Numbered from the stretch's first letter, positions 254 through 61,356 are shown. The stretch is 64,000 bases of DNA from Candidatus Aminicenantes bacterium (GCA_963754085.1 CAVWFA010000012.1:38638-102637); one strand, 5' to 3'. Numbers and translations are program-made. Notes: generated by a model from the letters alone, not told the origin.

Positions 254-345
254 GGGGTCAAACCTAAATTCTTATAATTTTCCGGCGGTGCTGCGACACC
301 TGAATATGGGGAGCTCGAAAATAATAAGAATTTAGGTTTGACCCC
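254..345. repeat. Foldback element family A, copy A1. Arms are GGGGGTCAAACCTAAATTCTTATAATTTTC and GAAAATAATAAGAATTTAGGTTTGACCCC, around a unique 34-nt GC-rich core.
   Basis: An inverted repeat of about 29 bp read directly from the sequence, with one mismatch. The conserved AAGA-G-GGGG lead-in lies at 249-257. Confidence 0.85.
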
Positions 346-381
346 GGGAGGATTGCGGCCTAGAATGGCCGTGAAGGGCGA

Positions 382-573
382 ATGACAATGATCAGCCGGT
401 TCGCGGTCCCGTTCGTGATACTGGCCGTCCTCTTCCTGCCCCTGCCCTTCGCCCTTGGCTCGATCGTCTTCGGCATCCTTCTCGCGGTCCGGCCGCGAGG
501 CGAGCTCTGCGTCGACCGGGCCCCCTCCTCAGGCCTCGCCGGTCCGACCCTCCTCCGCAGTCCGCCTCGCTGA
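382..573 (+). CDS. Possible small two-helix membrane protein of 63 aa.
   Basis: An ORF with two hydrophobic stretches. No homology is recognised, and it could be spurious. Confidence 0.2.
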   Translation: MTMISRFAVPFVILAVLFLPLPFALGSIVFGILLAVRPRGELCVDRAPSSGLAGPTLLRSPPR

Positions 574-631
574 CCTCCTCCATCTCCCCGCCTGCCGCGC
601 TGAGATCCCTGTCTAGAGAGGAGGACCCCCG

Positions 632-3153
632 ATGAGTGAAACGACGACCGCTGCCCCCGACGGGCGCAGCCCTGTCATGAAACGTCCGCCTTCGGCCTTG
701 TCGGCCAAGCTCAAGACCGCCTTCAACCGCTTTCGCGGCGTTCCCGTCGAAACCGACCTTGCGGCGTATGCGAGGACGGTCCGATCGATCCGCGCGGCGC
801 ACGAGGGCGGGGAGATCGCGGCGATCGCCGACGCCGAGATCGCCCGGCGGGCCGCGGCGCTCCGCCGGCCGCCGGCGGACGGGGCCTCCGTTCCGCCGTC
901 GCGGGAAGACGAGCGCGTGCGCGTCGCCATCTTCGCCCTGGCGCTCGAAGCCGCCCGCCGCGCGACCGGGCTCGACGCCCACGACGTCCAGATCATCGCC
1001 GGTCTGGCCATGACCGACGGCCGGATCGCCGAGCTCCCGACGGGGGAGGGCAAGACGCTGGCGGCGGTGTTCTCCGCCTCTTACTTCGCGCTACTCGGCC
1101 GGCCCGTCCACGTCCTGACCTTCAACGATTACCTGGCCCGCCGCGACGCGGTCTGGATGGGCCCGGCCTACCGCCTCCTCGGCCTGTCCGTCGGCGCCGT
1201 CCAGGAGGCCCCGGACAAGGCCGCCAAGAAGGCCGCCTACGCCTGCGATATCACGTATGCCACCGCCAAGGAGGCCGGCTTCGACTACCTGCGGGATCGG
1301 CTGGCTTACGAGCCCGGCGAACTCGTCCACCGGCCTTTCGCCGTGGCCCTCGTCGATGAGGCCGACTCCATCCTCATCGACGAAGCCCGTATCCCGCTCG
1401 TCATCTCCGGGACCTCCGGAGCGACCGGACCCGATGTCTCGCGGCTGGCCGCCGTCGTCCGGGACCTCGAGCGGGGCCGCGACTTCGTGACGGACGCCGA
1501 GAACGCCAACGTCTTCCCGACCGACGCGGGCATCCGCCGCGTCGAGTCGGCCCTCGGCTGCGGCAACCTGTTCACGCCGGAGAACGAGACGCTCCTGGCC
1601 GCGGTCCACTGCGCCCTCCACGCCGGGCTCCTGCTCGAGCGCGACGTCGATTACATCGTCCGCGACGGCCGCATCGAGATCGTCGACGAGTTCACCGGCC
1701 GGGTCATGGACAAGCGGCATTGGCCCGACGGCCTCCAGGCCGCCGTCGAGGCCAAGGAGGGGGTGCGGCGCGGCTCCGAGGGGCGCATCCTCGGGTCGAT
1801 CACGCTCCAGCACTTCTTCCGGCTCTATCCGACGCTCTGCGGCATGACGGCCACGGCCGAGCCCTCGGCGCGAGAGCTCAAGGAATTCTACGGCCTCGGC
1901 GTCGTCGTCGTGCCGTCCCACCGGCCGTGCGTGCGCCGGGACCTGCCCGACGTCGTTTTCACGCATCGGGAGGCCCGGCGAACGGCCCTCGTCCGGGAGA
2001 TCGCCGCGTGTCGGGCCGCGGGCCGTCCCGTGCTCGTCGGGACGTCGAGCGTCCGGGAATCGGAAGAGCTCGCCGCGGCCCTGACCGGGCGGGCGTCCCC
2101 GTGCGAGGTCCTCAACGCCAAGAACGACGAGCTCGAAGCCGGGATCATCGCCCGGGCCGGCGTCCCGGGCGCCGTGACCATATCGACCAACATGGCCGGG
2201 CGCGGCACGGACATCAAGCTCGGCGGGCCGAACAACCCGGTTGTCGCGGACGAAGAAGAGCACGACCGGGTGGCCGGCCTCGGGGGGCTCATTGTCATCG
2301 GTACGAACCGGCACGAGAGCCTGCGCATCGACAGCCAGCTCCGCGGCCGGGCCGGCCGCCAGGGCGATCCCGGCTCGTCCGGTTCTTCATCAGCCTCGAG
2401 GACGATATCTTCGAGCGCTACGGGCTCACCCGCCGGCTGTTTTCCCGTTACAGGCTCGCGCGAAGCGCCGCTCCCGTCGACAACGAGCTCCTGCGCAAGG
2501 AGATCGTCCACGGCCAGCGTGTCATCGAGGGCCGCAATCTGGACATCCGCCGGGCGCTCTGGGATTATTCGACGCTCGTCGAAACGCAGAGGCGGATCGT
2601 CGCCGGCTGGCGCGACGCGGTCTTCGCTCCCGACGGGGGAGAGGCCGGTTCGCCTTTCCGAGTGGCGCCGGAGCTCGCGGAGGCGGGAACCGCCAAGCTG
2701 GGGCGGGATGCGTTCGAGCGGCTCGTCCGGCGGGCCGCGCTCTACCACATCGACGACGCCTGGACCGACCACCTGGCCTGGCTGGCCGACCTCCGCGAGG
2801 GGATCCACCTCGTCTCCATCGGGCGGAAGGAGCCGCTCCAGGAATTTCAAAAGGCCGCGACCGACGCCTTCCTCGAGCTCGAGGACAGGATCGGGGGCGC
2901 GATCGATGGCACGCTCCGTTCCCTCGTCGCCCGTGAGGGCCCGATCGACCTCGAGGCGGCTGGCCTGAAGGGGCCGTCGTCGACCTGGACCTACCTCGTC
3001 AACGAGGACCAGTTCGGCTGGGGCGTCGAGCTGCTCAAGGGGACGAACATCGGCGTCGCCGCGGGGGCCGCGGCGTTTTACGGCCCCCTGTTCCTCCTGG
3101 CCCTCATCGCCAATCGCTTTAAAAGGAAAGATAAAGAAGGGGTCAAACCTTAA
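632..3153 (+). CDS. secA: Preprotein translocase ATPase SecA. The reading frame is interrupted by a 1-bp deletion near 2378-2383, within GDPGSS|RFFISLEDD. The stop codon lies inside foldback element A2.
   Basis: The N-terminal motor motifs (GEGKTLAAVFSASYFALLGRPVHVLTFNDYLA, DEADSILIDEARIPLVISG) and the downstream GRAGRQGDPGSS...RFFISLEDD segment are in two different frames, which can be joined by adding a single C. A GAGGAGG RBS lies upstream of the ATG at 632. Confidence 0.85.
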
Positions 3154-3233
3154 TTCTTATAATATTTCCACGCAATTGGGACGAGCAAGGCCGTAGGGAT
3201 TTTCGAAAATTATAAGAATTAAGGTTTGACCCC
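3139..3233. repeat. Foldback element family A, copy A2. Its arm type is the same as A1 and A4.
   Basis: GGGGTCAAACCTTAATTCTTATAATATTTCC ... GAAAATTATAAGAATTAAGGTTTGACCCC. The secA stop codon TAA (3151-3153) lies inside the left arm. Confidence 0.85.
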
Positions 3234-3299
3234 TTCCGAATTGACAGGGCCGGCGGGGGCGGATAGAGTAAGAACTCCGTCGCTCCGGAGGAAGGACCG

Positions 3300-4727
3300 A
3301 TGACGAACGAGCCGACCAAGGCCCCGGCCGCACCCGCCAGCGGGCTCGAGCGCAAGCTCGGGCTCTTCCCGCTGACCAACATCGTCATCGCCAACATGGT
3401 CGGCGCCGGCATCTTCACGACCTCGGGCCTGCTGATGGCGGACCTCCACAGCCCCCTGATCATGCTCGGCCTCTGGCTCGTCGGCGGCCTCGTCGCCCTG
3501 TGCGGCGCCCTGAGCTACGGCGAGCTCGGCGCCGCTTTCCCGCAGGCCGGCGGGGAGTATGCGTTCCTGTCGCGCCTCTACCATCCCGTCCTCGGCTTCC
3601 TGTCCGGCTGGGTCTCGTTCTTCGTCGGTTTCTCCGCCCCCATCGCCGCTTCGGCCATCGGCTTTTCCGAGTACCTGACCCGGGCTTTCCCCGGCCTGCT
3701 CCATCCCGGCCTCTTCCCCGGCCCTCACGAAGCCGCGGCCATGAAGAAGCTCTACGCCATCCTCATCATCGCCGCCTTCACTTTCCTCCATACCCGCGGC
3801 CTCGAAGCCGGGGCCCGCGTCCAGAACGCCCTGACCGGACTGAAGATCCTCCTCATCGTCGGTCTCGTCGCCGCGGGCTTCGCCTTCGGAAAAGGGAGCC
3901 TGGCCCATCTCACCTCCGCGGCGCCGTTCCGCTTCGACTTCGCCGGCATCAAGACGATGGGCCTGTCGCTGATGTGGATCATGTTCGCCTACAGCGGCTG
4001 GAACGCCTCGGCCTACGTCGGCTCCGAGGTCCGCGACCCCTCGCGCAACCTGCCCCGGTCGCTCCTCCTCGGGACGGCCGTGGTCATGATCCTCTATGTC
4101 GCCCTCAACCTCTTCTACATCTACGCCATCCCGCCGGCCCAGATGGAAGGCGTCATCTCCGTCGGAGGCCTGGCCGCCGGGAATCTGTTCGGCAGGTCCG
4201 CCGAGACCGTCCTGTCCCTCCTCATTTCGTTCGCCCTCTTCTCCTCCCTCAGCGCCTACCTCATTCTCGGCCCGCGCGTCTACTACTCGATGGCCCGGGA
4301 CGGCATCTTCTTCAAATCCATCGCCTATGTCGACCCGAAGTGCAGCGTGCCGACCCGGTCGATCGTCTTGCAGGGGGGGATCGCCGCGGTCATGGTTCTC
4401 TTCGGGACCTTCGAGCAGCTCCTGACCTACATGGGCTTCTCCCTGGGCTTGTTCCCGCTCCTGGCCGTGTTCGGCGTCTTCAAGCTGCGCCGGACGGGCC
4501 GAAGCGCCGTGAAGCTCCCGGGCTATCCGGTCGCCCCCGCCGTCTATCTCCTCGTTGGCACGGCCATCCTGGTCCTGTCGTTCCTGCACAAGCCCGTTCC
4601 GTCCCTGGTCGCGATCGCTACCGCCCTGGTCGGCCTCCCCGTGTACCTCCTGTTCAAGTGGCGAGGGAGCCGGGCTGGCCGAGCCCCCGGGAGCCCCCCG
4701 CCCCCCGCTTCCCGCCGACTTGACTAA
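3300..4727 (+). CDS. APC-family amino acid permease.
   Basis: A 475-aa polytopic membrane protein. The N-terminal amino-acid-permease signature LFPLTNIVIANMVGAGIFTTSG is present. Confidence 0.75.
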   Translation: MTNEPTKAPAAPASGLERKLGLFPLTNIVIANMVGAGIFTTSGLLMADLHSPLIMLGLWLVGGLVALCGALSYGELGAAFPQAGGEYAFLSRLYHPVLGFLSGWVSFFVGFSAPIAASAIGFSEYLTRAFPGLLHPGLFPGPHEAAAMKKLYAILIIAAFTFLHTRGLEAGARVQNALTGLKILLIVGLVAAGFAFGKGSLAHLTSAAPFRFDFAGIKTMGLSLMWIMFAYSGWNASAYVGSEVRDPSRNLPRSLLLGTAVVMILYVALNLFYIYAIPPAQMEGVISVGGLAAGNLFGRSAETVLSLLISFALFSSLSAYLILGPRVYYSMARDGIFFKSIAYVDPKCSVPTRSIVLQGGIAAVMVLFGTFEQLLTYMGFSLGLFPLLAVFGVFKLRRTGRSAVKLPGYPVAPAVYLLVGTAILVLSFLHKPVPSLVAIATALVGLPVYLLFKWRGSRAGRAPGSPPPPASRRLD

Positions 4728-4801
4728 TAGGGGGCATCCGCCTATCCTTGTTGCCGTAGGAATGGGGCGAATTTTCCAGGCTTGGTTAGCGGGAGTGCTG
4801 C

Positions 4802-5770
4802 ATGCAGAGCGTTGAGACCGGACCGGGGACGCTGACGAGAAGGACAGCCGCTCCAGCGGCCGCGTTCCTCCTCCTGGCCGTCCTGGCCGGCGGTTGCTCC
4901 ATCGAAAAGATGGCCCTGAACAAGGCCGCCGGGATGCTCTCCGGCTCGGGCTCGGCCGACGTCTTCAGCTCGGACAACGACCCCGACCTCGTCGGCGAGG
5001 CCCTGCCTTTCGCCATCAAGTTCTACGAGTCGCTCCTGGCCTCGGTGCCCGACCACGCCGGCCTGCGACTCCGTACGGGCAGCCTTTACATCATGTACGC
5101 CAACGCCTTCGTCGAGACGCCCGCCGACATGATCCCCCGCAGCCGGACCGAAGAGAAGGAGTACCTCATGGCCCGGGCCAAGAACCTCTATCTCCGCGGC
5201 CGGGACATGCTCTTTGTCTCTGTGGAAAAGAAGAATCCTGTGATCCGGCGGCAGCTCAAGGACCGGAAATACAAGGAGGCCATGGCCCCGTTCGGCAAGG
5301 GCGACACCCAGCTGCTCTACTGGACGGCGCTCGGCTGGCTGGCCGCCTTTTCCGTCGATCCCTTCGACATGACCCTCGGCCAGACCGTGCCTCAGACCCG
5401 GGCCATGATCGAGCGGATCGAGGCCCTCGAGCCCGGCTACGGCAACGGCGCCCTCGATGGCTTTTATGTCGGCTATTACGGCTCGCTCCCCGACTATCTC
5501 GGGGGCGACCCGGCCAAGGCCCGGGAGCACTTCGCCCGGGCCCAGGAGCGGGCCGGGAAGACGGACACGTCGTCCCTGCTGTCCCTGGCCACGACCGTCT
5601 GCGTCAAGGAGCAGAACGCGGCCGAGTTCAAGGACCTGCTCGGACGGGTCCTGGCCTTCGATCCGGACAGCAGCCCGTCGACCCGGCTGGTCAACATCCT
5701 CAACCAGCGCAAGGCCCGCTGGCTCCTGGCCCACATCGACGATTATTTCATCGAAATGGAACGCCCATGA
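4802..5770 (+). CDS. TRAP transporter TatT-component-family lipoprotein (TPR-like).
   Basis: A signal peptide carries the lipobox LAGGCS. The protein sits directly upstream of a DctP/DctQM TRAP system, which is the TPAT arrangement. Confidence 0.6.
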   Translation: MQSVETGPGTLTRRTAAPAAAFLLLAVLAGGCSIEKMALNKAAGMLSGSGSADVFSSDNDPDLVGEALPFAIKFYESLLASVPDHAGLRLRTGSLYIMYANAFVETPADMIPRSRTEEKEYLMARAKNLYLRGRDMLFVSVEKKNPVIRRQLKDRKYKEAMAPFGKGDTQLLYWTALGWLAAFSVDPFDMTLGQTVPQTRAMIERIEALEPGYGNGALDGFYVGYYGSLPDYLGGDPAKAREHFARAQERAGKTDTSSLLSLATTVCVKEQNAAEFKDLLGRVLAFDPDSSPSTRLVNILNQRKARWLLAHIDDYFIEMERP

Positions 5771-6777
5771 TCAAGAAGGTTTTCGCAGCGCTCGTCCTCG
5801 CCGGGCTGCTTCAGGCCGGCCCCGCCGCCTCGTCCGGCCCGATCGTGATCAAGATCGGCAGCATCGCCCCCAGCCGCTCGCCCTGGGACAAGGCCCTCCA
5901 GCAGGTGGCCAATGATTGGGAGAAGCTCTCGAACGGGGCCGTGCAGGTCAAGATCTATCCCGGCGGCATCGCCGGGGGCGAGCAGGACATGATCCGGAAG
6001 ATGCGCCTGGGCGTTCTCCAGGGCGGCGTTTTCTCGAGCATGGGCATGGCCAAGATCGATCACTCCCTGATCGTCCTGGCCATCCCCTTCCTGTTTCATT
6101 CCCGCGAAGAGTTCAACGCCGTCTTCGATCAGATAAAGCCGACGCTCGAGAAGCTCATCGAGGCGAAGGGCTTCAAGCCGGTGTTGTGGACGCTCGCCGG
6201 CTGGATCAACTTCTTCTCTAAGGTCCCGGTCGTCGAGCCCGACGACCTCAAGAAGCTCAAGATCAGCACGACGGCCGATTTCCCCGAGGTCGAGCAGGTC
6301 TGGAAGCGCATGGGCTACGAGGCCGTCGCCGGCGACCAGAGCGACCTGATGATCCAGCTCCAGAGCGGCGCGGTCACGGCCCTGTACCTGCCCGCGCTCG
6401 TCGCGGGGTCGGGCCAGTTCTTCGCCCTGGCCCCCCACATGCTCGCGCCGTCCCTGGCCCCTCTCTTCGGGGGGCTCATGCTCAGCGACAAGGCCTGGTC
6501 GTCCATCCCCACCGAGCTGCGCCAGCCTTTCCTCGACGCGGTCGTCGCCGCCTCCCGGGGGCTCTATGAAGAGACCATGGGGCTCGAGGCGGACGCCATC
6601 AAGATGATGAAGGACAACGGGCTGGTCGTCCATGATCCTCCGCCGGCCGCGCTGGTCCGGTGGCGGGAATCGACGGACCGGGCCGTGGCGGGCCTTCTTG
6701 GCACGGTCTTCCCGAAGGAGCTCTACGACCAGGTCATGGGCTATCTCCTGGAATACCGAAAGACCCATGGCCAGTAG
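5767..6777 (+). CDS. TRAP transporter periplasmic solute-binding protein (DctP family).
   Basis: Signal peptide MIKKVFAALVLAGLLQAGPAASS followed by a DctP-like fold. It overlaps the upstream gene by 4 bp. Confidence 0.75.
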   Translation: MIKKVFAALVLAGLLQAGPAASSGPIVIKIGSIAPSRSPWDKALQQVANDWEKLSNGAVQVKIYPGGIAGGEQDMIRKMRLGVLQGGVFSSMGMAKIDHSLIVLAIPFLFHSREEFNAVFDQIKPTLEKLIEAKGFKPVLWTLAGWINFFSKVPVVEPDDLKKLKISTTADFPEVEQVWKRMGYEAVAGDQSDLMIQLQSGAVTALYLPALVAGSGQFFALAPHMLAPSLAPLFGGLMLSDKAWSSIPTELRQPFLDAVVAASRGLYEETMGLEADAIKMMKDNGLVVHDPPPAALVRWRESTDRAVAGLLGTVFPKELYDQVMGYLLEYRKTHGQ

Positions 6778-8623
6778 GTTCGGCCGCGCCGTCCGCGCCG
6801 TCGAGGACAGTCTCGCCATTGCGGCCATCTTCGCCCTCGCGGCGATGCTGCTCGCGGAGGTCGTCGCCCGCAAGGTGTTCAACACCGGGATCCGGGATTC
6901 GGGGGCTTACGTCGAACACCTCGTCCTGGCGGCCACGTTCCTTGCCGGGGCGGTCACGTCGCGCGAGAAGAAGCACCTCGCCCTGGCCACCGGCATGTTC
7001 CTGCCCGAGCGCTTCAAGGCCTATGCCGAGACGGTCACGGCGGTCCTGGCCTCGGCCCTGACGTTCGCCTTCGGGGTGAGCGCCTTGTCATTCGTATGGA
7101 CCGCGTTCGGCCCGGCCGACAGGGTCGGCTTCCTGCCCAAGCGGGCCGTCGTGCTGGTCATGGCGGCCGGCTTCCTGGTCATGAGCGCGCGCTTCGTCAC
7201 GACGATCAGGACGAAGAAGGCCAGGGTCTGGGCGGGGGCCGGGGCCCTCGTCCTGGGCCTCCTTCTCGGCTTCGATCCGCTCGTCCAGCTGTTGACCGCC
7301 GGCGGGACGGCCTCCCGGCCGGTCCTCATCGCGGCCGCGGGGTTCATCAAGCCGCTGGTCGGGGGGGCCGCCGGGCCGCTCATCCTCCTTCTCATCGCGG
7401 CCGCCTTCCTCGGCCTGCCCATCTTCACCGTGCTCGGCGGGATCGGTTTCCTCCTCTTCGCCAAGACCGGGCAGCCCCTCGAGATCATCCCCAACCAGGC
7501 CTACGGGGTCCTGACGGGGAGCGCCATCCCGGCCATCCCGCTGTTCGCGGCGGTCGGCTTTTTCCTGTCCGAGAGCAAAGCGGCGGAGCGAATGGTCCGG
7601 TTCTTCCAGGCCGTGTTCGGCTGGTTCCCGGGCGGGCCGACCGTGATGGCCGTCCTCGTCTGCGCCTTTTTTACGACGTTCACGGGCGCCTCGGGCGTGA
7701 CCATCCTGGCCCTCGGCGGGCTCCTGGCCCTGATCCTGGAGAAATCCGGCTATGCCAAGCGTTTCACGGTCGGCATCCTGACCGCCTCGGGCAGCATCGG
7801 TTTGCTCTTCCCGCCCAGCCTTCCGGTCATCATCTACGGGGTGATCGCCCAGACGAGCATCAAGGACATGTTCGTCGGGGGGTTCCTGCCGGGGGTCTTC
7901 CTGGTCGTCTCCGTCGTCGCCGTCGGTATCGTCTACTCCTTCAAGCACCGGGTTCCGCGCCAGCCGTTCAAGGTCCGGGAGGCGGCGGCCGCGTTCCTGT
8001 CCTCTTTCTGGGAGCTCCTGCTGCCGCTCATCGTCTTCGGCCTCTATTTCGGCGGGATCGTCAGCCTGCAGGAGAGCGCGGCGGCGGCCCTGGTCTACGT
8101 CTGGATCGTCGAGACCTTCGTCAAGAAGGACGTGAAGATCCGCGACCTGCGCCGCATCTTCCTCCACGCCGTGCCCATCATCGGCGGCGTGCTGATCATC
8201 CTGGCCCTGGCCAACGGCCTGTCCTATTACATCATCGACGCCCAGATCCCCCAGAAGCTGAGCGAGTGGGTGGCGGCCAAGATCTCCTCTCCCTACGTGT
8301 TCCTGCTCCTGCTCAACCTGGCCCTGCTCGTCGTCGGCTGCTTCATGGACATCTACTCGGCCATTCTCGTCGTCGTGCCGCTCATCATCCCGCTGGGGAA
8401 CTACTTCCACATCCACCCGGTCCACCTGGGCATCATCTTCCTGGCCAACCTGGAGCTCGGATACCTGACGCCGCCGGTCGGGTTGAACCTGTATCTCGCC
8501 TCCTACCGCTTCAACGAGCCCCTGCCCCGGGTCTACAAGGACGTGCTGATCTTCCTCGGCATCGGGCTGGTGGCGGTGCTGCTCATCACCTACGTGCCCT
8601 TCCTGACCATGGCGCTGCTATAA
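6767..8623 (+). CDS. TRAP transporter fused small/large permease (DctQM).
   Basis: A 618-aa polytopic protein with a DctQ-like N-terminus and a DctM-like C-terminus. It overlaps the dctP stop. Confidence 0.75.
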   Translation: MASRFGRAVRAVEDSLAIAAIFALAAMLLAEVVARKVFNTGIRDSGAYVEHLVLAATFLAGAVTSREKKHLALATGMFLPERFKAYAETVTAVLASALTFAFGVSALSFVWTAFGPADRVGFLPKRAVVLVMAAGFLVMSARFVTTIRTKKARVWAGAGALVLGLLLGFDPLVQLLTAGGTASRPVLIAAAGFIKPLVGGAAGPLILLLIAAAFLGLPIFTVLGGIGFLLFAKTGQPLEIIPNQAYGVLTGSAIPAIPLFAAVGFFLSESKAAERMVRFFQAVFGWFPGGPTVMAVLVCAFFTTFTGASGVTILALGGLLALILEKSGYAKRFTVGILTASGSIGLLFPPSLPVIIYGVIAQTSIKDMFVGGFLPGVFLVVSVVAVGIVYSFKHRVPRQPFKVREAAAAFLSSFWELLLPLIVFGLYFGGIVSLQESAAAALVYVWIVETFVKKDVKIRDLRRIFLHAVPIIGGVLIILALANGLSYYIIDAQIPQKLSEWVAAKISSPYVFLLLLNLALLVVGCFMDIYSAILVVVPLIIPLGNYFHIHPVHLGIIFLANLELGYLTPPVGLNLYLASYRFNEPLPRVYKDVLIFLGIGLVAVLLITYVPFLTMALL

Positions 8624-8625
8624 GA

Positions 8626-8712
8626 GGGGGTCAAACCTATACCTTTTTAATTTCATTCTTTGGCGAAGGTCGGGGCTAAGTCGCGAAATTAAAAAGGTAT
8701 AGGTTTGACCCC
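8626..8712. repeat. Foldback element family A, copy A3 (arm type 2, CTATACCTTTTTAATTT).
   Basis: GGGGGTCAAACCTATACCTTTTTAATTTC ... GAAATTAAAAAGGTATAGGTTTGACCCC around a unique 30-nt core. It starts 3 nt after the dctQM stop codon. Confidence 0.85.
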
Positions 8713-8715
8713 ATC

Positions 8716-9063
8716 CTATTTATCCCTATTGAAGTGGGGCAGGTCCCAGGGGATCTCGAGGGAGAGCTCGACGAAGCCGGCGTAAACGCCGTCCCGGAAC
8801 CAGGGCGCCTGGTAGATCAGCTTCTTCTTGCCGTTCTTCTGAATGGTGTAAACGTTCGTCCGCCGTTCCGCCATCATCCCCGCGAGCTGCGTGCGGCTCG
8901 GCTCGGGATGGCAGTCGAAGACGTTCGTGCCGATGAGGGCCGCTCCGCCGTCGGCCGCGAAGACCTCGCGCGCCCGCCCGTTCAGTTCGAGGATCCGGCC
9001 CTCGGTGTCGCAGACCGTGACCGCGCCCGGGAATTCCCGGACCCACGCCTGGTCGCTCATGAC
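8716..9063 (-). CDS. PAS-domain protein of 115 aa.
   Basis: MSDQAWVREFPGAVTVCDTEGRILELNGRAREVF... is a PAS-like sequence. Confidence 0.5.
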   Translation of the reverse strand, partial: VMSDQAWVREFPGAVTVCDTEGRILELNGRAREVFAADGGAALIGTNVFDCHPEPSRTQLAGMMAERRTNVYTIQKNGKKKLIYQAPWFRDGVYAGFVELSLEIPWDLPHFNRDK

Positions 9064-9419
9064 CTCTCCTTTTTCGCCCGCCCCTTGAACAGGGCCCGTA
9101 CGGCGTACCCCGCGTAGCCGGCCAAGCCGGCCGAGAGCGCCGCGACGAGCGCCGTGGCCGCGAGGACCGTCCAAGGCCGGTCCAGACCGAACATCCGGGC
9201 CATCCTGTCCGCGATGAGCTCGCTCCCGGTGAGATAGAAATAGGTCCCGGCCCCGAGCCACAGGAGCCCCGCCGCGAAGAGGCCGGTGCGGATCGCCCTC
9301 CAGCCGCTCGTCGCCGCGGCCGCGCCGTAGGCGAAGGGGACGATCATGATCCACCACCAGTAAGGGGCCACGAGCTGGAGGGCCAGCAAAGCCAGAAGGC
9401 ACACGAGCGTCGCGATCAT
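9057..9419 (-). CDS. Small hydrophobic membrane protein of 120 aa.
   Basis: Three to four predicted TM helices. It overlaps both flanking genes by a few bp, which suggests an operon. Confidence 0.4.
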   Translation of the reverse strand: MIATLVCLLALLALQLVAPYWWWIMIVPFAYGAAAATSGWRAIRTGLFAAGLLWLGAGTYFYLTGSELIADRMARMFGLDRPWTVLAATALVAALSAGLAGYAGYAVRALFKGRAKKERS

Positions 9420-15484: not shown

Positions 15485-15511
15485 GAAACGGGTATCATGT
15501 CCCCCTTTTTT
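15448..15511. terminator. Family B perfect palindrome (22-bp stem, 14-nt loop) followed by TTTTTT and preceded by an A-run. It probably acts as a bidirectional intrinsic terminator between convergent genes.
   Basis: GGGGGACATGATACCCGTTTCC-caattcattaaata-GGAAACGGGTATCATGTCCCCC-TTTTTT. The left arm also encodes the last 8 codons of the esterase. Confidence 0.7.
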
Positions 15512-30912: not shown

Positions 30913-31008
30913 GGGGTCAAACCTAAATTCTTACAATTTTCGATTCCCTGGGCGCAAGAGGCGACCCTGCCTAGGCGACGAAAATTATAAGAATTTAGGT
31001 TTGACCCC
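30913..31008. repeat. Foldback element family A, copy A4 (arm type 1).
   Basis: GGGGTCAAACCTAAATTCTTACAATTTTCG ... CGAAAATTATAAGAATTTAGGTTTGACCCC around a unique 37-nt core. It lies between the rodZ start and the ftsX stop. Confidence 0.85.
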
Positions 31009-34124: not shown

Positions 34125-34199
34125 GCCCCTGTAGCTCAGTATGGATAGAGCAGCAGATTCCTAATCTGTTTGTCGCCTGTTCGAGTCAGGCCAGGGGCA
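34125..34199 (+). tRNA. tRNA-Arg (anticodon CCT).
   Basis: A hand-folded cloverleaf: 7-bp acceptor stem GCCCCTG/CAGGGGC, D-arm GCTC/GAGC, anticodon stem GCAGA/TCTGT with loop TTCCTAA, T-arm GCCTG-TTCGAGT-CAGGC and discriminator A. Confidence 0.8.
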
Positions 34200-53571: not shown

Positions 53572-53574
53572 GGC

Positions 53575-54296: not shown

Positions 54297-54321
54297 CTGA
54301 ATTTACCCAAGGAGTAGGCCT

Positions 54322-55641
54322 ATGGCCAAGATACTGCTGGTCGATTTCAGCCCGGCCGACCGGGATCGTCTTATTGCCGAAAAGTACGATGTCGATGCGC
54401 GCTCGACCGGCTGGACCACCGGCCTCGACGAGCCCCTGGATCTCTCGGGCGAACATGACGTCGTCTTTTACCAGGTCGGCGGCGAGGCCGCGGCCGGCCG
54501 CCCTGATCTTCACGCCGATGCGCACGAGGCGCTCCTGGAGCGCGCGCGCGAAGGCGCCCGGATCGTCTGCTTCATCGGCGGCGGGGAGACGTTCCAGCTG
54601 ACGAACATCGTCGGGCCCCTGGACGGGCTTCAGATCAAGGATAGCGCCCGGGCCGAGGCCGTCGTCTTCAGCCCGCGGGCCCTGTTCCACGTCCCTTTCG
54701 AGAGGTTCCGGCCGTACATCGCCAGCGCCTTCCGCCTCCTGCCCGAAACGTTCGGCGACGGGATCTGGGAGACGGAATCGTCCGCGAACGGCAAGTTCGA
54801 GTTCCTGGCCAAGACGACCGACGGCGCGCCCGTGGCCATGGTCGTCCGGAAAGGGAAGGGCGAGCTCCTGCTCCTGCCCTCGTTCGGGCCCAAGACGATC
54901 GAGGTCGTCGATTACATCCTCAAGGATAAGCTGCCGCTCACGCCCGAGCCTCCCGGCGAGGCGGGCGCCGGCTGGCTCGAAGGCGAAGACTACGTCTTCC
55001 CCGAGCTCCGGGCCCTGGTGGCCAAGCGCGACGAGGAGAAAAAGAAGCTCGAGGAGGCCTTGGCCGACTACGACCGCCAGATCAAGGACCTCAAGGCCGG
55101 CGGCCAGGAGGAGTTCCACCGCCTGCTCAGCGGCGAAGGAGCGGTCCTCAAGAACGCCGTCGTCCACGCCCTCCGCTACCTCGGCTGGGGCCGCGTCGTC
55201 GACGTCGACCAGTACTGGAAGAAGACCATCCGGAACAAGGAGGAGGACGCCTGGGTCATCGATCCCCCCGATATGCCCGTGGAGGCCGGCCTGCGCAAGG
55301 GCGAGCTGGTCATCGTCCTCGCCCGGGGCGGCAAGAACTGGGCCACGGACGACGAGTGCGCCCTGCTTCAGAAGTTCAAGGGCCGGCGGATGCAGGAGTT
55401 CGACAACACCCGGATGAAAGCGGTCCTCGTCGGCAACTACTTCTCGGCGGCCGAGGCCAAAAGCCGGCCCAATCCGTTCTCGGCCGCGCAGATCGAGGAG
55501 ACCCAGAAGGACGGCAACGGCCTGGTCACGACCTACGAGCTGTTCCGGGCCATCAAGGCCGAGAAGGAGGGCCGCGTTTCCAAGGACGCCATCCGCGAGC
55601 AGATCAGGCGCAAGACCGGACTGATCACTTTCGATATTTGA
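54322..55641 (+). CDS. Hypothetical 439-aa cytoplasmic protein of unknown family.
   Basis: A clean ORF with a good RBS (AAGGAG). No family is recognised from the sequence. Confidence 0.5.
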   Translation: MAKILLVDFSPADRDRLIAEKYDVDARSTGWTTGLDEPLDLSGEHDVVFYQVGGEAAAGRPDLHADAHEALLERAREGARIVCFIGGGETFQLTNIVGPLDGLQIKDSARAEAVVFSPRALFHVPFERFRPYIASAFRLLPETFGDGIWETESSANGKFEFLAKTTDGAPVAMVVRKGKGELLLLPSFGPKTIEVVDYILKDKLPLTPEPPGEAGAGWLEGEDYVFPELRALVAKRDEEKKKLEEALADYDRQIKDLKAGGQEEFHRLLSGEGAVLKNAVVHALRYLGWGRVVDVDQYWKKTIRNKEEDAWVIDPPDMPVEAGLRKGELVIVLARGGKNWATDDECALLQKFKGRRMQEFDNTRMKAVLVGNYFSAAEAKSRPNPFSAAQIEETQKDGNGLVTTYELFRAIKAEKEGRVSKDAIREQIRRKTGLITFDI

Positions 55642-55648
55642 GAAAGAT

Positions 55649-55735
55649 GGGGTCAAACCTATACCTTTTTAATTTTTGCCAGATGTGACTCGACCTATGA
55701 GGCAAAAAAACTAAAAAGGTATAGGTTTGACCCCC
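55649..55735. repeat. Foldback element family A, copy A5 (arm type 2).
   Basis: GGGGTCAAACCTATACCTTTTTAATTTTTGCC ... GGCAAAAAAACTAAAAAGGTATAGGTTTGACCCCC around a unique 21-nt core. It lies 7 nt after the upstream gene's stop codon. Confidence 0.85.
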
Positions 55736-55818
55736 TTTGCCAGCCGTCTTGCTATTCGCTCCCTCCCCATATAGAATTCTTTTCCGCGTGACCCCGTGAG
55801 CAACGGAGGAGGAGAGCG

Positions 55819-57757
55819 TTGAACCTGACCTGGATCGATTGGGGGATCGTCCTCGCCGTCTTCGCCTTCATCATCGCCGTCGTCATCCTCAGCAAGCCGC
55901 TCATGCGCAGCGTCTCCGACTTCCTGGCCGCCGGCCGGACCGGCGGGCGCTACCTCATCAGCCTGTCCCAGGGCACGGCCTCCCTCGGCGCCATCACCAT
56001 CGTCGGCATGCTCGAGATGAACTACATCGCCGGCTTCAATATGCGCTGGTGGGAGATGGTCATGGCCGTCGTGGTCGTCGGGATCAGCGTCTCGGGCTGG
56101 GTCCTCTACCGGTTCCGCCAGACCCGGGCCCTGACCATGGCCCAGTTCTTCGAGATCCGCTACAGCCGGCAGCTTCCGCATCTTCGCCGGGACCATGGCC
56201 TTCCTGTCCGGGATCATCAATTTCGGCATCTTCCCGGCCGTGAGCGCCCGCTTCTTCATCTACTTCTGCGGCCTGCCGCAGACGGTCGACCTCCTCGGCC
56301 TTCACGTCTCGACCTTCGCCCTGATCATGATCGTCATCCTCTGGATCCCGCTCTACTTCGTCTTCAGCGGCGGCCAGATCGCGGTCATGATCACCGACTT
56401 CATCCAGGGCATCTTCGTCAACGTCGTCTTCATCGTCATCGTCGTCGTCCTGATGCTCAAGATCGACTGGGGCCAGATCTTCCAGGCCCTGTCCCAGGCT
56501 CCGGCGAGCGCCTCGCTGGTCAACCCGTTCCATACGGGCAGCACCAAGGACTACAACTTCTGGTACTTCTTCATCGGCATGATCGGGGTCATCTACGGCA
56601 AGCTCTCCTGGCAGGGGACCCAGGCCTATAACGCCTCGGCCAAGAGCGCCCACGAAGCCAAGATGGGCGATGTCCTGGCCAACTGGCGCGGCATCCCGCA
56701 GTGGGGCCTGTTCCTCGTGTTCGTGCCCATCGTGGCCTACACGTTCTGGCATGGGCAGGCGTTCACGGCCGCGGCCGCCTCGGTCCGGCCCGTCCTCGAC
56801 GGGCTGGCCTCGGACGCCCTGAGAAGCCAGCTGACCGTGCCGATCGCCCTGACCAAGCTCCTGCCGGTCGGGCTGATGGGCGCGTTCGCGGCGGTCATGC
56901 TGGCCGCGGCCATCGGCTGCAACGAGACCTACCTCCACTCCTGGGGCAGCATCTTCATCCAGGACGTGATCATGCCTCTGCGGAAGAAGCCCTTCGCGCC
57001 GGAGCAGCACCTCAAGGCCCTCAAGCTCTCCATCCTGGCCGTCGCGGCCTTCTCGTTCGTCTTCAGCCTGCTCTTCCAGCAGAGCGAGTACATCTTCCTC
57101 TTCTTCGCCATCACCGGCGCCATCTTCGCCGGCGGGAGCGGCGCGGTCATCATCGGCGGCCTGTACTGGAAGCGGGGCACGACGGCCGCGGCCTGGTCGG
57201 CCATGATCGTCGGCTCCGTCGTCGCCGTCGGCGGCATCGCCGTCAAGCAGCTCGTGCCCGGCTTCCCCGTCAACGGCCAGATGTTCTGGGGCCTGGCCAT
57301 GGCCGGGTCGAGCGTCGTCTACATCGTCGTCTCGCTCCTCACGGGCGGCCGGAAGACCTTCGACATGGACAAGATGCTCCATCGGGGGAAGTACCTGGTC
57401 AAGGAGGAATACGCCGTCGTCGATACGGTCCCGGTCAAGGGCTGGAAGGTCCTGGGCATGGGCCGGGAGTTCACCCGCTGGGACAAGGTCATCTACGTCG
57501 CGACCTACGCCTGGACGGCCAGCTGGGTCGTCGTCTTCGTCGTCGGGACGGTCCTCAACCTGACCCGCGAGGTCTCGACGGCCGCCTGGCTCGGCTTCTG
57601 GCGGACCTACACGATGATCTTCCTGGCCGTCTCCGTCTTCGTCATCGTCTGGTTCTCGATCGGCGGCATCATCAACCTCAAAGAGATGGTCCGGACGCTC
57701 AAGGTCATGAAGCGCGACCACTCCGATCAGGGCTTCGTCGAGCGGGACCGCGGCTGA
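55819..57757 (+). CDS. Sodium:solute symporter (SSS family) with a TTG start. A 1-bp insertion lies near 56168.
   Basis: FFEIRYSR|SFRIFAGTMAFLSGIINFG becomes continuous after removing one C. The protein has about 13 TM helices. Confidence 0.65.
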
Positions 57758-57765
57758 GGGCGGCC

Positions 57766-60159
57766 ATGGCGACGTTCGGGAATTTCTCCGAAGACGGCCG
57801 GGAGTTCCTCGTCACCGACGTCCGCACGCCCAGTCCCTGGATCAACTACCTCCAGAACGGCCGCTATTTCGCGACCATCTCCGCCAACGGCGGCGGCATC
57901 TCCTACGACCGTTCGCCGCTCCACGGCCGGATCACGCGCTACCGCATCAACGACGTCCCGCCCGACCGGCCGGGGAAGTACATCTACGTCAAGGACCGCG
58001 ACACGGGGGACGTGTGGAGCCTGACCTGGCAGCCGGTCGGGCACGAGCCCGCGTCGGACTACCGCGCGGCCCACGGCTTCGGCTACACGAGGGTCGAAGC
58101 CGGGGTCGGGGACATCGCCTCGTCGGTCGTGTTCTTCGTCCCGGCCGGCGACGACCGGGAGATCTGGAAGGCGACGCTGCGGAACGCGTCGGGGCGGCGG
58201 CGGCGGCTCACGGTCGTCGGCTATGTCGAGTTCGCGCTGGGCCACGCCCTGGTCGACCTCATCAACCAGTGCGACGATCAGCACTTCAACCGGGTCCGTT
58301 TCGAGAAGGATCTCGACGCGCTCTTCGCCACCAAGACCTATTGGGTGACGGAGACGCGGGGCACCCAGCACCAGGAGAACAAGGAGTGGGACCGCTGGGC
58401 CTTCTTCTCGGTCAACAGGCCCGTCGCGGCCTACGAGACGGTGCGGGAGCGGTTCATCGGGCCGTTCCGCAGCGAGTCCGACCCGGAAGGGCTGGAGAAG
58501 GGCCTCTCGTCGAAGGACATGGACTGCGGCAACGCGGTCGGCGCGCTCCAGGTCGACCTCGAGCTCGGGGCCGGGGAGTCGGCCGACGTCATCTTCTCGC
58601 TCGGGGTCATCGCCAAGCCGGAGTTCGAGCGGACGAAGGCGGAGGTCGTCGGAAAATACCGCGACGCCGGGTCGGTCGACGCGGCCCTGGCCCGCGTCGA
58701 GGCCGAGTGGGACCGCTTCCTCGGGCACACCCGGGCCGCGACGCCGGACCCCGAGGCCGATGTCTTCCTGAACTATTGGATCCCCTATCAGGCCAAGGTC
58801 GCGTTCGACGTCGGCCGCGTGGCCAGCTTCTATTACTGGGGCATCGGGCGCGGCTACGGCTATCGCGACACGGCCCAGGACACGATCGCCATCGTCATCG
58901 CCGACGCGGCCGGGGCCCGGGCGCGAGTGGGGCTCCTGGCCCGGCAGATGCGGCGGGACGGCCAGGTCTATCATCATTTCTACGGCGACGGACAGGGCGA
59001 ATTCACCGGGCACTGCGACGACCCGCTCTGGTTCATCCTGGCCGTTACCGAATACCTCAAGGAGACGGGCGACTTCGGGCTCCTCGACGCGAAGGAGCCG
59101 TTCCTCGACGGGGGCGAGGGGACCGTTCTGGACCACCTCCTGGCGGTGGTTCGCTTCGCCGGGGCGGATCCGGGCCCCCACGGCCTCCCGAAGTTCGGCC
59201 GCGGCGATTGGAACGACACGCTCGATTACATCGGCGGCCGGGACGGCGGCGAGAGCGTCTGGGGCGCCATGTTCTATGTCGCCATGCTCAACCGGCTCAT
59301 CGAGCTGCTGGAGGTCCTGAAGGCGCCGGAGAAGGTCCCCGACGTCTGTGCGCTGAGGGACCGGCTGGTCACGGCGATCGAGACCCACGCCTGGGACGGC
59401 GAGTGGTACGTGAGGGCCTTCGGCGAGGCCGGCCGGAAGATCGGTTCGAAGCCGAACCGGTACGGGCAGATCTTCATCAACACCCAGAGCTGGGCCGTCA
59501 TCGCCGGGCTGCCGGACCGGGACCGGCTGGCCGCGGCCATGGGCAGCCTCCGCGACCGGCTCGATACGCCCTACGGGCCGAAGATCTGCGCCCCGGCTTT
59601 CCGCGAGATCGACCCGACGATCGGCCTCATCACCCGGTGCATTTGGGGCAAGAAGGAGAACGGGGCCGTCTTCTGCCATCCGGCGGCGTGGGTCGTCCAG
59701 GCGTGGTGCCTCCTGGGGTCGGGGGATGCGGCCTTCGAGACATTCAAAAAGCTCTTGCCGGGCCGGATCGACCAAACGACCTTCTCGGCCGAGCCCTACG
59801 TCTACTCGCAATACATCACGAGCGACGAGCACGAAACGGCCGGAAAGGCCAGCCATTCCTGGCAGACCGGCACGGCCGCGTGGATGTACCGGGTGGCCTA
59901 CGACCACATCCTGGGCCTGCGGCCGTCGTATGAGGGGTTGGTCATCGATCCCGTCATCCCGGCGTCGTGGCCGGGGTTCAAGGCCGAGCGGGTCTTCCGC
60001 GGGGCGCGCTACCTCGTCGAAGTCGAGAACCCCGAAGGCGTCATGTCGGGGGTCGCGTCGATCGACGTCGACGGCAGGCCGATCGACGGCAAGATCATCG
60101 CGCCCCGGCCGGCCGGCACGGTCTGCCGGGTCTCCGTCAAAATGGGGAGGACCGCATGA
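57766..60159 (+). CDS. GH94-family glycoside phosphorylase (cellobiose/chitobiose/cellobionate-phosphorylase-like).
   Basis: A 797-aa protein with GDWNDTLD and the (alpha/alpha)6 catalytic region. Confidence 0.7.
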   Translation: MATFGNFSEDGREFLVTDVRTPSPWINYLQNGRYFATISANGGGISYDRSPLHGRITRYRINDVPPDRPGKYIYVKDRDTGDVWSLTWQPVGHEPASDYRAAHGFGYTRVEAGVGDIASSVVFFVPAGDDREIWKATLRNASGRRRRLTVVGYVEFALGHALVDLINQCDDQHFNRVRFEKDLDALFATKTYWVTETRGTQHQENKEWDRWAFFSVNRPVAAYETVRERFIGPFRSESDPEGLEKGLSSKDMDCGNAVGALQVDLELGAGESADVIFSLGVIAKPEFERTKAEVVGKYRDAGSVDAALARVEAEWDRFLGHTRAATPDPEADVFLNYWIPYQAKVAFDVGRVASFYYWGIGRGYGYRDTAQDTIAIVIADAAGARARVGLLARQMRRDGQVYHHFYGDGQGEFTGHCDDPLWFILAVTEYLKETGDFGLLDAKEPFLDGGEGTVLDHLLAVVRFAGADPGPHGLPKFGRGDWNDTLDYIGGRDGGESVWGAMFYVAMLNRLIELLEVLKAPEKVPDVCALRDRLVTAIETHAWDGEWYVRAFGEAGRKIGSKPNRYGQIFINTQSWAVIAGLPDRDRLAAAMGSLRDRLDTPYGPKICAPAFREIDPTIGLITRCIWGKKENGAVFCHPAAWVVQAWCLLGSGDAAFETFKKLLPGRIDQTTFSAEPYVYSQYITSDEHETAGKASHSWQTGTAAWMYRVAYDHILGLRPSYEGLVIDPVIPASWPGFKAERVFRGARYLVEVENPEGVMSGVASIDVDGRPIDGKIIAPRPAGTVCRVSVKMGRTA

Positions 60160-61172
60160 ACAACAAAAAGGGAGGGACCCTGCGCCGGGATCCGTCCAAT
60201 CCGATCCTGACCCGGGCGGACCTGCCGGACATCCCGCCTGGTCTCATGGACGCCACTTCGGTGTTCAACCCGGGCGCGGTCAAGGCCGCCGGGATCACCT
60301 ATCTCGTCCTCCGCGTCCAGGCCCGGTCGCGCGAGACCTTCATGGTCATGGCCGAGAGCGCCGACGGCGTCCGTTTCGTCGTCCGCCCGGAGATCGTGGA
60401 CCTCAAGGGGATCGAACAGGTCCGGGAGAGGATCTATCACGTCTATGACGGCCGCATCACCCGGCTCGAGGGGGTCCATTACGTCATGTTCGCCATGGAC
60501 ATGGACGGCGGCTGCCGGCTGGGACTGGCCCGGACGGACGACCTCCGGGAGTTCCGGTTCATGGGCGTCACGTCGACCGACGACGTCCGCAACGGCGTCC
60601 TGTTCCCGGAGAAGATCGGAGGCCTGTACCTCAGGCTCGAGCGGCCCAACAAGGCCAAGCTCGAAGGCGGCCCGACCACGGGCTCGGAGATCTGGCTGGC
60701 CGGCTCGGACGATCTGCTCACCTGGCGGCGGCTCGGCCCGGTCATGGGCGGGCGCTTCCACTACTGGGACGAGTTCATCGGCTCGGGGCCGCCGCCGGTC
60801 AAGACCCGGAGCGGCTGGCTGCATGTCTATCACGGCGTGGCGACGCATTTCGGCAGCGCCAACATCTACCAGGCCGGGGTCTCCCTGCTCGACCTTCGCG
60901 ATCCGGCCAAGGTCCTGGGCCGCTCCCGGGGCAACATCCTCGAGCCGCGGGAGCCCTACGAGCTCTGCGGCCAGGTCCCCAACGTGGTCTTCCCCTCGGG
61001 CCTGGTGGTCGAGGACTTCGACGCCGAGGGCTTCGCCCTGCCCTCGAGCCCGGTCAAGGTCTACTACGGCGCCGCCGACACCGTGGTGGGCCTGGCCGTG
61101 ACGACGGTCGGCGAGCTCCTCGACGCCTGCGGCGATCCCGGATGGGGTCAAACCCGGGAGCAAGCTTCTTAA
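60156..61172 (+). CDS. GH130-family glycoside phosphorylase (beta-mannoside phosphorylase-like).
   Basis: A 338-aa five-bladed beta-propeller-like sequence. Its start overlaps the GH94 stop (ATGA). Confidence 0.65.
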   Translation: MNNKKGGTLRRDPSNPILTRADLPDIPPGLMDATSVFNPGAVKAAGITYLVLRVQARSRETFMVMAESADGVRFVVRPEIVDLKGIEQVRERIYHVYDGRITRLEGVHYVMFAMDMDGGCRLGLARTDDLREFRFMGVTSTDDVRNGVLFPEKIGGLYLRLERPNKAKLEGGPTTGSEIWLAGSDDLLTWRRLGPVMGGRFHYWDEFIGSGPPPVKTRSGWLHVYHGVATHFGSANIYQAGVSLLDLRDPAKVLGRSRGNILEPREPYELCGQVPNVVFPSGLVVEDFDAEGFALPSSPVKVYYGAADTVVGLAVTTVGELLDACGDPGWGQTREQAS

Positions 61173-61175
61173 GAC

Positions 61176-61268
61176 GGGGTCAAACCTCCATTTTTACAGT
61201 TTCCCGCCGTATCGCCCCGAGCGCCTGGCAACGCGTTCGGGAAACTGTAAAAATGGAGGTTTGACCCC
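61176..61268. repeat. Foldback element family A, copy A6 (arm type 3). It is nested inside an outer 21-22-bp inverted repeat that itself starts GGGGTCAAACC (61144-61165 and 61285-61305).
   Basis: GGGGTCAAACCTCCATTTTTACAGTTTCCCG ... CGGGAAACTGTAAAAATGGAGGTTTGACCCC. The outer repeat is GGGGTCAAACCCGGGAGCAAGC ... GCTTGCTCCCGGTTTGACCCC. Confidence 0.85.
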
Positions 61269-61356
61269 GTCTGAAAATCCCCGGCTTGCTCCCGGTTTGA
61301 CCCCTTCTTATTTATATGCTAAAAAAGAGGTTCGATCCGGCCGTTTGGAGAGAACC

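Follow-up and report, generated by a model that had tools for sequence, protein, structure and literature searches.

Foldback repeats in a Candidatus Aminicenantes genome are probably REPIN-like doublets of the terminal inverted repeat of a RAYT group 1 transposase unit

What kind of repeat are the small foldback elements that recur in a 64,000-nucleotide stretch of DNA from a Candidatus Aminicenantes bacterium (GCA_963754085.1 CAVWFA010000012.1:38638-102637; hereafter, the whole stretch is called the window)? Each element consists of two mutually complementary arms around a central loop, and the original prediction, made from the sequence alone, had set the elements apart from REP/BIME-type repeats as an apparently novel family. 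Our analysis indicates that the foldbacks are probably inverted doublets, i.e., REPIN-like hairpins, of the terminal inverted repeat (TIR) of the TIRtron, a unit of ~1.1 kb encoding the RAYT-like Y1 (HUH) transposase TIRYT (RAYT group 1, TnpA-Y1 subclass 2.1). On this reading, each arm is one TIR: a near-invariant head, the 11-mer GGGGTCAAACC, and after it two sub-repeats of ~8 nt in tandem, whose sequence is largely specific to the genome. The foldbacks appear to belong to a known class of small bacterial mobile repeat, with the specific family itself undescribed; a full-text literature search for the 11-mer retrieved only unrelated papers.

The window was searched for GGGGTCAAACC with up to one mismatch allowed, and 100 shuffled sequences served as a control. 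Fourteen matches were found, each of them exact, against 1.35 ± 1.08 in the shuffles, none of which (0/100) reached 14, and the most frequent 12-mer family in the window is this same repeat; the predicted family with a conserved terminus is thus real. The 14 heads form seven inverted pairs, one of them nested within another (Table 1). All six loci originally predicted were recovered, with two ends displaced by 1 nt (8627 instead of 8626, and 55734 instead of 55735), but the copy number of six was too low, as a seventh, outer pair (61144-61304) encloses the sixth; the end coordinate given earlier had spanned this outer pair without counting it. The three arm types and the AAGA-N and N-TCY flanks are as previously described. 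The arms of the window copies are 29-38 nt long with 94-97% complementarity, the loops are 28-39 nt long and mutually unrelated, and all copies are intergenic. When six window copies were folded as single-stranded DNA, energies of -28 to -46 kcal/mol were obtained (z-scores of -7.6 to -13.5). The predicted density of about one copy per 10 kb is close to the ~1 per 9 kb found here (spacing, 3-25 kb), from which an extrapolation to ~100-400 copies per genome would be reasonable, whereas the genome GC content of 68% assumed earlier compares with 65.9% measured in the window. No Rfam family matches the foldbacks at its gathering score, and at E ≤ 1 there are only sub-threshold matches to (plant) microRNA precursors, which are generic long hairpins. 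The sole Rfam match in the window to reach the gathering score is a tRNA gene at 34125-34199.

Anatomy and covariation were examined in a set of 115 distinct copies, drawn from the window together with 113 other contigs. Representative genomes were scanned with the pattern GGGGTCAAACC-N55-85-GGTTTGACCCC, so the range of loop lengths is partly set by the pattern, and the 11-mer is invariant in the external copies by construction, exact matches having been required. In total, the 113 contigs and the window gave 140 pattern matches (overlapping nested ones included), with 260 heads paired versus 35 unpaired. The palindrome extends from the head to about position 28. At arm positions 13-24, the two arms are 84-94% complementary, compared with 30-63% when right arms are shuffled among copies, and at least three, mostly all four, pair types are seen at each position; over positions 12-28, the observed complementarity is 0.86 versus 0.50 in the shuffles (maximum, 0.53). 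The covariation that was predicted to keep each copy a near-perfect hairpin is therefore borne out over the whole set, and it reaches the first flanking base (53% vs. 29%), the flank consensus being A-A-G-A-n / n-T-C-T-T. Within the arms, sub-repeats recur in tandem every 7-9 nt (z = 7-11), e.g., TAAACTTT-TAAACTTT or TCAACATT-CAACAA, and TCAAACC, which belongs to the head, may constitute a third such unit. Loops average 57% GC, compared with 20% for the arms, and have a mean size of 34 nt in elements of 77-107 bp. In agreement with the original prediction that the cores differ from copy to copy, the loops show neither mutual similarity nor secondary structure of their own (mean z, -0.27), and a search for loop relatives in 0.9 Mb of related sequence returned 116 matches versus 100 for the control, i.e., none beyond the control level. 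No target-site duplication was detected in 102 copies when direct repeats of 2-9 nt were sought at any offset, the best 3-mer case being present in 6/102.

A search of the first 113 loci for an autonomous copy, i.e., matched ends 200-8000 bp apart, returned only pairs of separate elements. The transposase was found by reading the open reading frames (ORFs) between clustered foldbacks in one of the other contigs (L086, from a metagenome-assembled genome, or MAG, of Desulfobacterium sp.; contigs and loci are cited below by such L numbers). Here, a 338-aa ORF on the minus strand (3945-4961) lies between complete foldbacks at 3868-3959 and 4995-5087, with several copies clustered around it. The ORF matches Pfam Y1_Tnp at 45 bits (E = 1e-11; cut-off, 23). 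Among NCBIfam models, the REP-associated tyrosine transposase scores best (E = 6e-20), with 71.6 bits that fall short of the equivalog cut-off of 80, and the 11-mer encodes the last four codons of the ORF (GVKP*). A dispersed foldback with similar arms is also present in L032, a second contig of this MAG. In a Syntrophaceae MAG (L035), a 37%-identical homologue has a full foldback on one side and, on the other, a solo right end of the same arm type, and the foldback loops resemble sequence upstream of the transposase gene, as expected for deletion derivatives.

A metagenome scan with the L086 and L035 proteins retrieved 553 contigs with relatives, and flanks were examined in the best 80 of these 553. 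Among those 80, the ATG is preceded by GGGGTCAAACC at a distance of 64-66 nt (in two, ~100-110 nt) in most homologues with at least 48% identity, and GGTTTGACCCC either lies at their stop codon or follows it by no more than ~100 nt; most of the others have inverted repeats of GGGGTCA plus CATC, GGTC, AGTC, GCCC or GATC at about the same positions. In these other lineages, TIR and TIRYT gene are thus linked. Of 360 retrieved homologues, 93 end in ...KV, as would be encoded by an AAG GTT TGA situated within the right TIR. Across 16 diverse homologues, neither the HUH motif (N-H-x-H) nor the Y-x-H-x-N-P motif varies, and the JGI product name for the homologues is 'REP element-mobilizing transposase RayT'. 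A single-sequence PDB search returned nothing, and a profile search returned DnaA domain IV only, matched by the C-terminal 90 residues of the family (PDB 1j1v, E = 3.5e-8; precomputed Pfam, PF08299). At two further loci, L189 (1060-1200, 2170-2240) and L123, the TIR head is reiterated in tandem on both sides of the TIRYT gene together with a short flanking motif, an arrangement that resembles REP clusters at RAYT genes.

Genes of this kind have been named TIRYTs and their units TIRtrons, with a shared TIR motif GGGGWSAS; dispersed TIR copies make up repeat families of single copies, dimers and clusters, and a well-defined Acidobacteria-specific TIRYT group has been reported (Di Nocera, De Gregorio & Rocco 2013, PMC3733652). 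TIRYTs equal TnpA-Y1 subclass 2.1 and RAYT group 1, and their C-terminus is a Bac_DnaA_C/helix-turn-helix (HTH) domain (Quentin et al. 2018, PMC6006769). It is the head that places the foldbacks with the TIRYT repeats: GGGGTCAA agrees with GGGGWSAS at 7/8 positions, and the GGGGTCAC or GGGGTCAG of relatives at 8/8. A constant terminus, mutually complementary halves and an unconstrained centre are, furthermore, hallmarks of REPINs, for which the lack of a target duplication is likewise known, so the traits that looked new were already known; in Pseudomonas fluorescens SBW25, no two REPINs share their spacer sequence, and spacer length varies (Bertels & Rainey 2011, PMC3337134). The claim that the family lies outside REP/BIME-type elements does not hold, since the same 11-mer and arm design form the terminal inverted repeats of a large RAYT-like Y1 transposase clade.

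Several observations nevertheless count against reading the foldbacks as TIR doublets mobilised by a TIRYT. A single arm (GGGGTCAAACC plus 17-20 AT-rich nt) has an internal palindrome of no more than 2-4 bp and no GTAG head; for this reason, the foldbacks are not canonical REPs. The search for a RAYT/IS200-like transposase suggested earlier was the appropriate check; it succeeded in other lineages, with a Y1 gene flanked by foldbacks, and found no TIRYT gene in the window or in ~85 sampled Aminicenantes loci (~0.7 Mb; hidden Markov model search over all loci), nor did three protein searches and look-ups of window proteins yield an Aminicenantes TIRYT. With about one gene versus hundreds of repeats per genome, however, a gene missing from 0.7 Mb is to be expected. 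The sole Y1_Tnp-like match in the sampled Aminicenantes loci (L068 7466-8000; MAG RBG_19FT_COMBO_65_30) belongs to a different clade with an HIH motif and scores 80 bits against the TIRYT profile, versus 313-380 for members; GGGGTCAAACC is absent from the upstream sequence examined, the 3' end of the gene lying beyond the locus. Two candidate homologues, chosen for a high-GC-like amino-acid composition, have variant heads (GGGTCAACCC, GGGGTCAACGC) and not the exact 11-mer. In published surveys, abundant flanking 16-mers were restricted to groups 2 and 3 of the RAYTs (Bertels et al. 2017, PMC5581495), no REP-like structures were found near subclass 2.1 genes (PMC6006769), and RAYT group 1 is stated not to be associated with abundant repeats (PMC5581495, PMC6006769), so a high copy number here would be an exception. 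Only 2/76 same-genome pairs with at least 86% arm identity have related loops, and simple copy-and-paste of the whole hairpin therefore does not explain the data. Lastly, arm mismatches show no bias between G-U and A-C on the transcribed strand (8 vs. 8) and thus do not directly point to an RNA-level role.

If a TIRYT mobilises the repeats in this Aminicenantes genome, the process would, by analogy with IS200/IS605 and TnpA-REP biochemistry, involve single-stranded DNA. Once single-stranded at the replication fork, the foldback would form a hairpin, the base of which would be recognised, cleaved and rejoined by the Y1 domain without target duplication, and the DnaA-domain-IV-like C-terminal HTH domain would read the sub-repeats of the stem. 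Such a mechanism would explain the complementary arms, the fixed head, the arm sequence that tracks the genome and the free loop.

Comparison of orthologous sites shows how the elements change. Across four or five genomes, the head is kept, and the arms are different yet self-complementary in each genome; one orthologue has no recognisable right arm, and another has a compensated head variant (GGGGTCAAATC/GATTTGACCCC). Arm types are largely genome-specific, with an arm identity of 0.83 within a MAG versus 0.57 between MAGs and loops at the random level in both comparisons. Related loops are kept in only 1-3 of 23 orthologous pairs, but at 80-86% flank identity this divergence may be neutral saturation and so does not separate drift from replacement. 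In two orthologous pairs with 88-91% flank identity, arms and loops are wholly different, which indicates replacement. Filled and empty orthologous sites are seen in L043/L037, L057/L113 and L069/L109, where AAGAA...TTCTT is part of the insertion and the empty site lacks the loop. Nested copies or solo-head remnants occur at copy 7 of the window and in L008, L023, L046 and L089; solo heads abutting full copies, together with the nested window copy, show insertion into or beside older copies.

Homogeneous arms whose loops are never shared could result from ectopic conversion limited to the homologous arms or from arm-only copying with hairpin templating, both of which are candidates. A more far-reaching version is that the Aminicenantes repeats evolve by an arm-only process, in which arms are homogenised across hundreds of loci and loops are never co-copied, e.g., by TIRYT cleavage at the head, arm re-synthesis or gene conversion and hairpin templating of the partner arm, the family having been domesticated as the lineage's standard bidirectional terminator. 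We regard this version as possible though rather doubtful; if true, it would be a mechanism not described for REPINs.

The position of the foldbacks relative to genes raises the question of whether they have a host function. By gene calls that are crude, 87 placed copies divide into 42 between tandem, 24 between convergent and 21 between divergent genes, and the distance from the upstream stop codon has a mode of 3 nt (17 copies; the TAA of TAAGAn being the stop) and a median of 9 nt. In eight further loci, from several genomes, the upstream ORF runs on into the element and terminates 15 nt within its arm (GGG GTC AAA CCT TAA), which means that the repeat encodes the last residues, ...GVKP, of host proteins. 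At orthologous sites in relatives, there are unrelated long hairpins with A-run/T-run flanks, e.g., in L013 and L098 opposite the L061/L006 elements. One could suppose that the foldbacks are bidirectional intrinsic terminators or mRNA-stabilising hairpins that were selected by the host and spread for that function, with the transposase link incidental. Besides the tight placement at gene ends, mostly in tandem and convergent contexts, and the classic terminator hairpins opposite them in relatives, the GGGG/CCCC base with AAGAA/TTCTT flanks would fit, and A/T flanks of SBW25 REPINs have likewise been taken to suggest co-option as terminators (PMC3337134). Selection for termination, though, has no need of an 11-nt head conserved across phyla or of genome-specific arms, and the same head bounds TIRYT genes; the 21 copies between divergent genes are also not accounted for, loops as long as 20-60 nt and the TTCTT tail are ill suited to a terminator, and a consensus terminator scan makes no call on the elements. 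As an origin of the family, we consider this explanation unlikely, and termination is likely a secondary role instead. For TIR doublets of a TIRYT, stop-codon placement and the terminator-like hairpins at relatives' orthologous sites support co-option, and many copies likely have a further role as bidirectional terminators or as 3' hairpins of mRNAs. The outward-facing TTGACC of a foldback could, in addition, contribute a -35 box to host promoters. One hairpin of the window that is not a foldback, at 15443-15510 between convergent genes, is perfect, with a 32-nt stem, a 4-nt loop (AAAAAGGGGGACATGATACCCGTTTCC...) and A5/T6 flanks, and stands opposite a GGGGTCAAACC element in L077; its DNA fold has -33.3 kcal/mol (z, -11.8), and it looks like a classic bidirectional terminator.

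The remaining explanations fare worse. Small, intergenic elements with ~30-bp inverted termini beginning GGGGTC might be miniature inverted-repeat transposable elements (MITEs) of a DDE transposon, e.g., a Tn3-like one, whose inverted repeats also begin GGGGTC. We judge this very improbable, given that no target-site duplication is present, that the genes seen bounded by foldback ends are Y1 and not DDE genes, and that the arms have no inner TAAG motif, which is typical of Tn3 inverted repeats. Integron attC sites, for their part, have core sites RYYYAAC / GTTRRRY, a characteristic size, a variable centre, conserved structure and a position after stop codons. The GTCAAAC / GTTTGAC of the foldbacks match these core sites at 6/7 positions, and size (77-107 bp), variable centre, conservation of structure over sequence and placement after stops agree as well; against attC-like folded recombination sites for an integron-type tyrosine recombinase, which we hold to be even less probable, the stems pair along their whole length and lack both extrahelical bases and an unpaired central spacer, cassette arrays are absent, the copies lie 3-25 kb apart with identifiable neighbours that are housekeeping genes (secA, rodZ, ftsX, transporters), and the enzyme adjoining the elements is a Y1 HUH transposase instead of an integrase. 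That the loops are acquired spacer-like or guide-like sequences in a constant hairpin scaffold is equally implausible: loops (mean, 34 nt) and arms (~28 nt) do have sizes like those of CRISPR spacers and repeats, and loops are unique against constant arms within a genome, but the repeats are inverted instead of direct and scattered singly, loop matches in related sequence stay at the control level, the foldback DNA pattern has 0 matches in viral contigs (a search with the pattern, not with loop sequences), the loop-length range is partly pattern-set, and spacer diversity is already known for REPINs (PMC3337134).

Table 1. Foldback copies in the 64-kb window (positions counted from its first nucleotide)
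Copy	Element	Left arm	Right arm	Loop	Remarks
1	254-345	254-282	317-345	283-316	arm GGGGTCAAACCTAAATTCTTATAATTTTC; 1 mismatch
2	3139-3233	3136-3166	3206-3236		arm coordinates include GAA/TTC flank
3	8627-8712	8627-8654	8685-8712		arm TATACCTTTTTAATTTC
4	30913-31008	30913-30942	30979-31008		1 C/T mismatch
5	55649-55734	55649-55677	55706-55734		
6 (inner)	61176-61268	61176-61206	61238-61268		arm TCCATTTTTACAGTTTCCCG; within loop of copy 7
7 (outer)	61144-61304	61144-61165	61284-61304		GC-rich arms GGGGTCAAACCCGGGAGCAAGC (left) and GCTTGCTCCCGGTTTGACCCC (right); 1-nt bulge

The identifiable neighbours of the window copies are ordinary chromosomal genes, namely those for secA, an amino-acid permease, the TRAP transporter DctQM, rodZ-like, ftsX-like and GH94 products. 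The right end of copy 1 gives TTGACC as a -35-like hexamer 17 nt before TAGAAT (338-366), a promoter-like site that faces outward from the copy and lies upstream of secA. Copy 2 is located between secA (632-2968) and the amino-acid permease gene (3300-4727), with a promoter-like TTGACA-17-TAGAGT (3241-3269) just downstream; the TTGACAG and TAGAGT/TAGCGT boxes of this site are kept in four aligned orthologous loci. Copy 3 lies between the DctQM gene (6632-8623), beginning 3 nt past its TAA stop, and a convergent ORF (8716-9402), stopping 3 nt short of that ORF's end, and its site is also occupied in three related genomes, with different self-complementary arms in each. Copy 4 is flanked by two minus-strand genes, rodZ-like (29834-30883) and ftsX-like (31012-32181). 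Copy 5 begins 7 nt past the stop of the ORF at 54322-55641; its orthologous site is empty in L029 and is filled in L070 by a copy with different arms. The AAGAC/GTCT flanks of copy 6 are also paired. Copy 7 is interrupted by copy 6, and the orthologue L023 retains one outer head of copy 7 together with an inner copy. The 5.6 kb between copies 5 and 6 (55634-61294), which include a GH94 glycoside phosphorylase-like gene, are replaced in a related MAG (L029 2865-3547) by a single flavodoxin-like gene. The possibility that this interval is a cassette was rejected, as the flavodoxin-like gene of L029 is unrelated and the copy-5 site there is empty.

The same foldback design is present in at least 113 MAG contigs of the representative-genome scan, mostly from Ca. 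Aminicenantes/Acidobacteriota, and several of the Aminicenantes contigs are 70-85% identical to the window and syntenic with it, which assigns the window to the same group. Other contigs carry the labels Desulfobacterium/Desulfobacteraceae (Desulfobacterales), Desulfosudis, Syntrophaceae, Thermodesulfovibrionia (Nitrospirota), Verrucomicrobiota, Actinomycetota and Auribacterota. Some automatic labels (e.g., 'Eubacteriales') are clearly wrong because the contigs are syntenic with Aminicenantes. In MAG s13_117 (L007, L022, L040, L063 and L081) and in Actinomycetota MAGs (L047, L065, L104 and L105), the same head is combined with arms that are GC-rich (CGGCAAnnGGACA) or consist of a TTGC repeat, and the head occurs in direct tandem runs with an inverted copy at the end; such tandem and inverted clusters are found in L007, L022, L040 and L063 of s13_117, and L081 3334-3385 is a perfect palindrome with no loop at all. 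A tandem array in an Acidobacteriota MAG (L092 7587-7666), in which GGGTCAAACC-like units alternate with GGTCTGACCCTGG units, has an arrangement unlike that of the foldbacks.

A second Aminicenantes repeat family, with the motif GGTCGCTCC-N-CAGAATCCGCTCCCTGC, was noticed at L003 6180-6560, L097 420-800, L069 1143-1272, L058 and L109. In MAG MFD01872.bin.1.66, the source of L003 and L097, a composite repeat of ~300 bp encloses a GGGGTCAAACC foldback that is inverted between the two paralogous copies; these share a loop, and the inner element is inverted relative to the flanks. A loop inversion between L003 and L097 as 'orthologues' was considered and rejected, both being paralogous copies in one MAG within this larger repeat.

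RAYT group 1 (TIRYT) is the largest and most widely distributed RAYT group, and surveys report no abundant repeats associated with it. Uncultured Aminicenantes apparently have a REPIN-like repeat density, and the TIR head is common to MAGs labelled as several other phyla. If the link to an in-genome transposase is true, REPIN-like populations would reach beyond Proteobacteria and RAYT groups 2 and 3, and the system would allow tests of how a Y1 enzyme with a DnaA-like HTH domain reads a two-part site (fixed head plus variable sub-repeats) and of how repeats become terminators. The finding gains weight if arm-only homogenisation, or a high copy number together with a group-1 RAYT, holds genome-wide. 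In Aminicenantes MAGs, foldbacks are likely also assembly break points and sequence markers.

Among known systems, integron attC sites resemble the foldbacks as sites that fold from a single strand and conserve structure more than sequence, with a near-matching core, a variable centre and a position right after stop codons, but the foldbacks have no extrahelical bases, cassette arrays or integrase. The Correia/NEMIS, ERIC and RUP MITEs are likewise ~100-bp intergenic elements with terminal inverted repeats of ~26-30 bp, form long hairpins in transcripts and can supply promoters or terminators. Those elements have conserved interiors and target-site duplications (TA for Correia), both of which are absent from the foldbacks. 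The BIMEs, or REP clusters, of enterobacteria are intergenic mosaics of inverted short repeats with variable linkers and an enzyme of the TnpA-REP type; their sequence and head motif differ, and their linkers are of a few defined motif types, unlike the unique linker of each foldback. REPINs of RAYT groups 2/3 (SBW25, E. coli) share much more, as they too are extragenic inverted doublets with a spacer that form hairpins with complementary halves, far outnumber singlets, vary in spacer length and sequence, have A/T-type flanks that suggest co-option as terminators and flank a single Y1 gene, as the foldbacks do in the Desulfobacterium and Syntrophaceae MAGs (PMC3116915, PMC3337134). In contrast to the foldback arm, the canonical REP is an imperfect palindrome with a GTAG head; foldback loops, moreover, do not continue the hairpin and are unalignable, and the linked transposase, from a different RAYT group, carries an additional DNA-binding domain. 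Finally, TIRtrons differ in that the density of ~1 per 9 kb found here looks higher than that of the reported 'moderately abundant' families and in that the 11-mer family, the AT-rich sub-repeat arms and the cross-phylum spread are absent from the searchable literature. With TIRtrons, however, the foldback system has in common, as seen next to the repeats in other lineages, a RAYT-like Y1 enzyme of ~320 aa that exceeds classical RAYTs in length and combines HUH and Y---NP motifs with a C-terminal DnaA_C/HTH domain, a gene bounded by inverted repeats that begin GGGGWSAS, and the dispersal of that repeat as singles, dimers and clusters.

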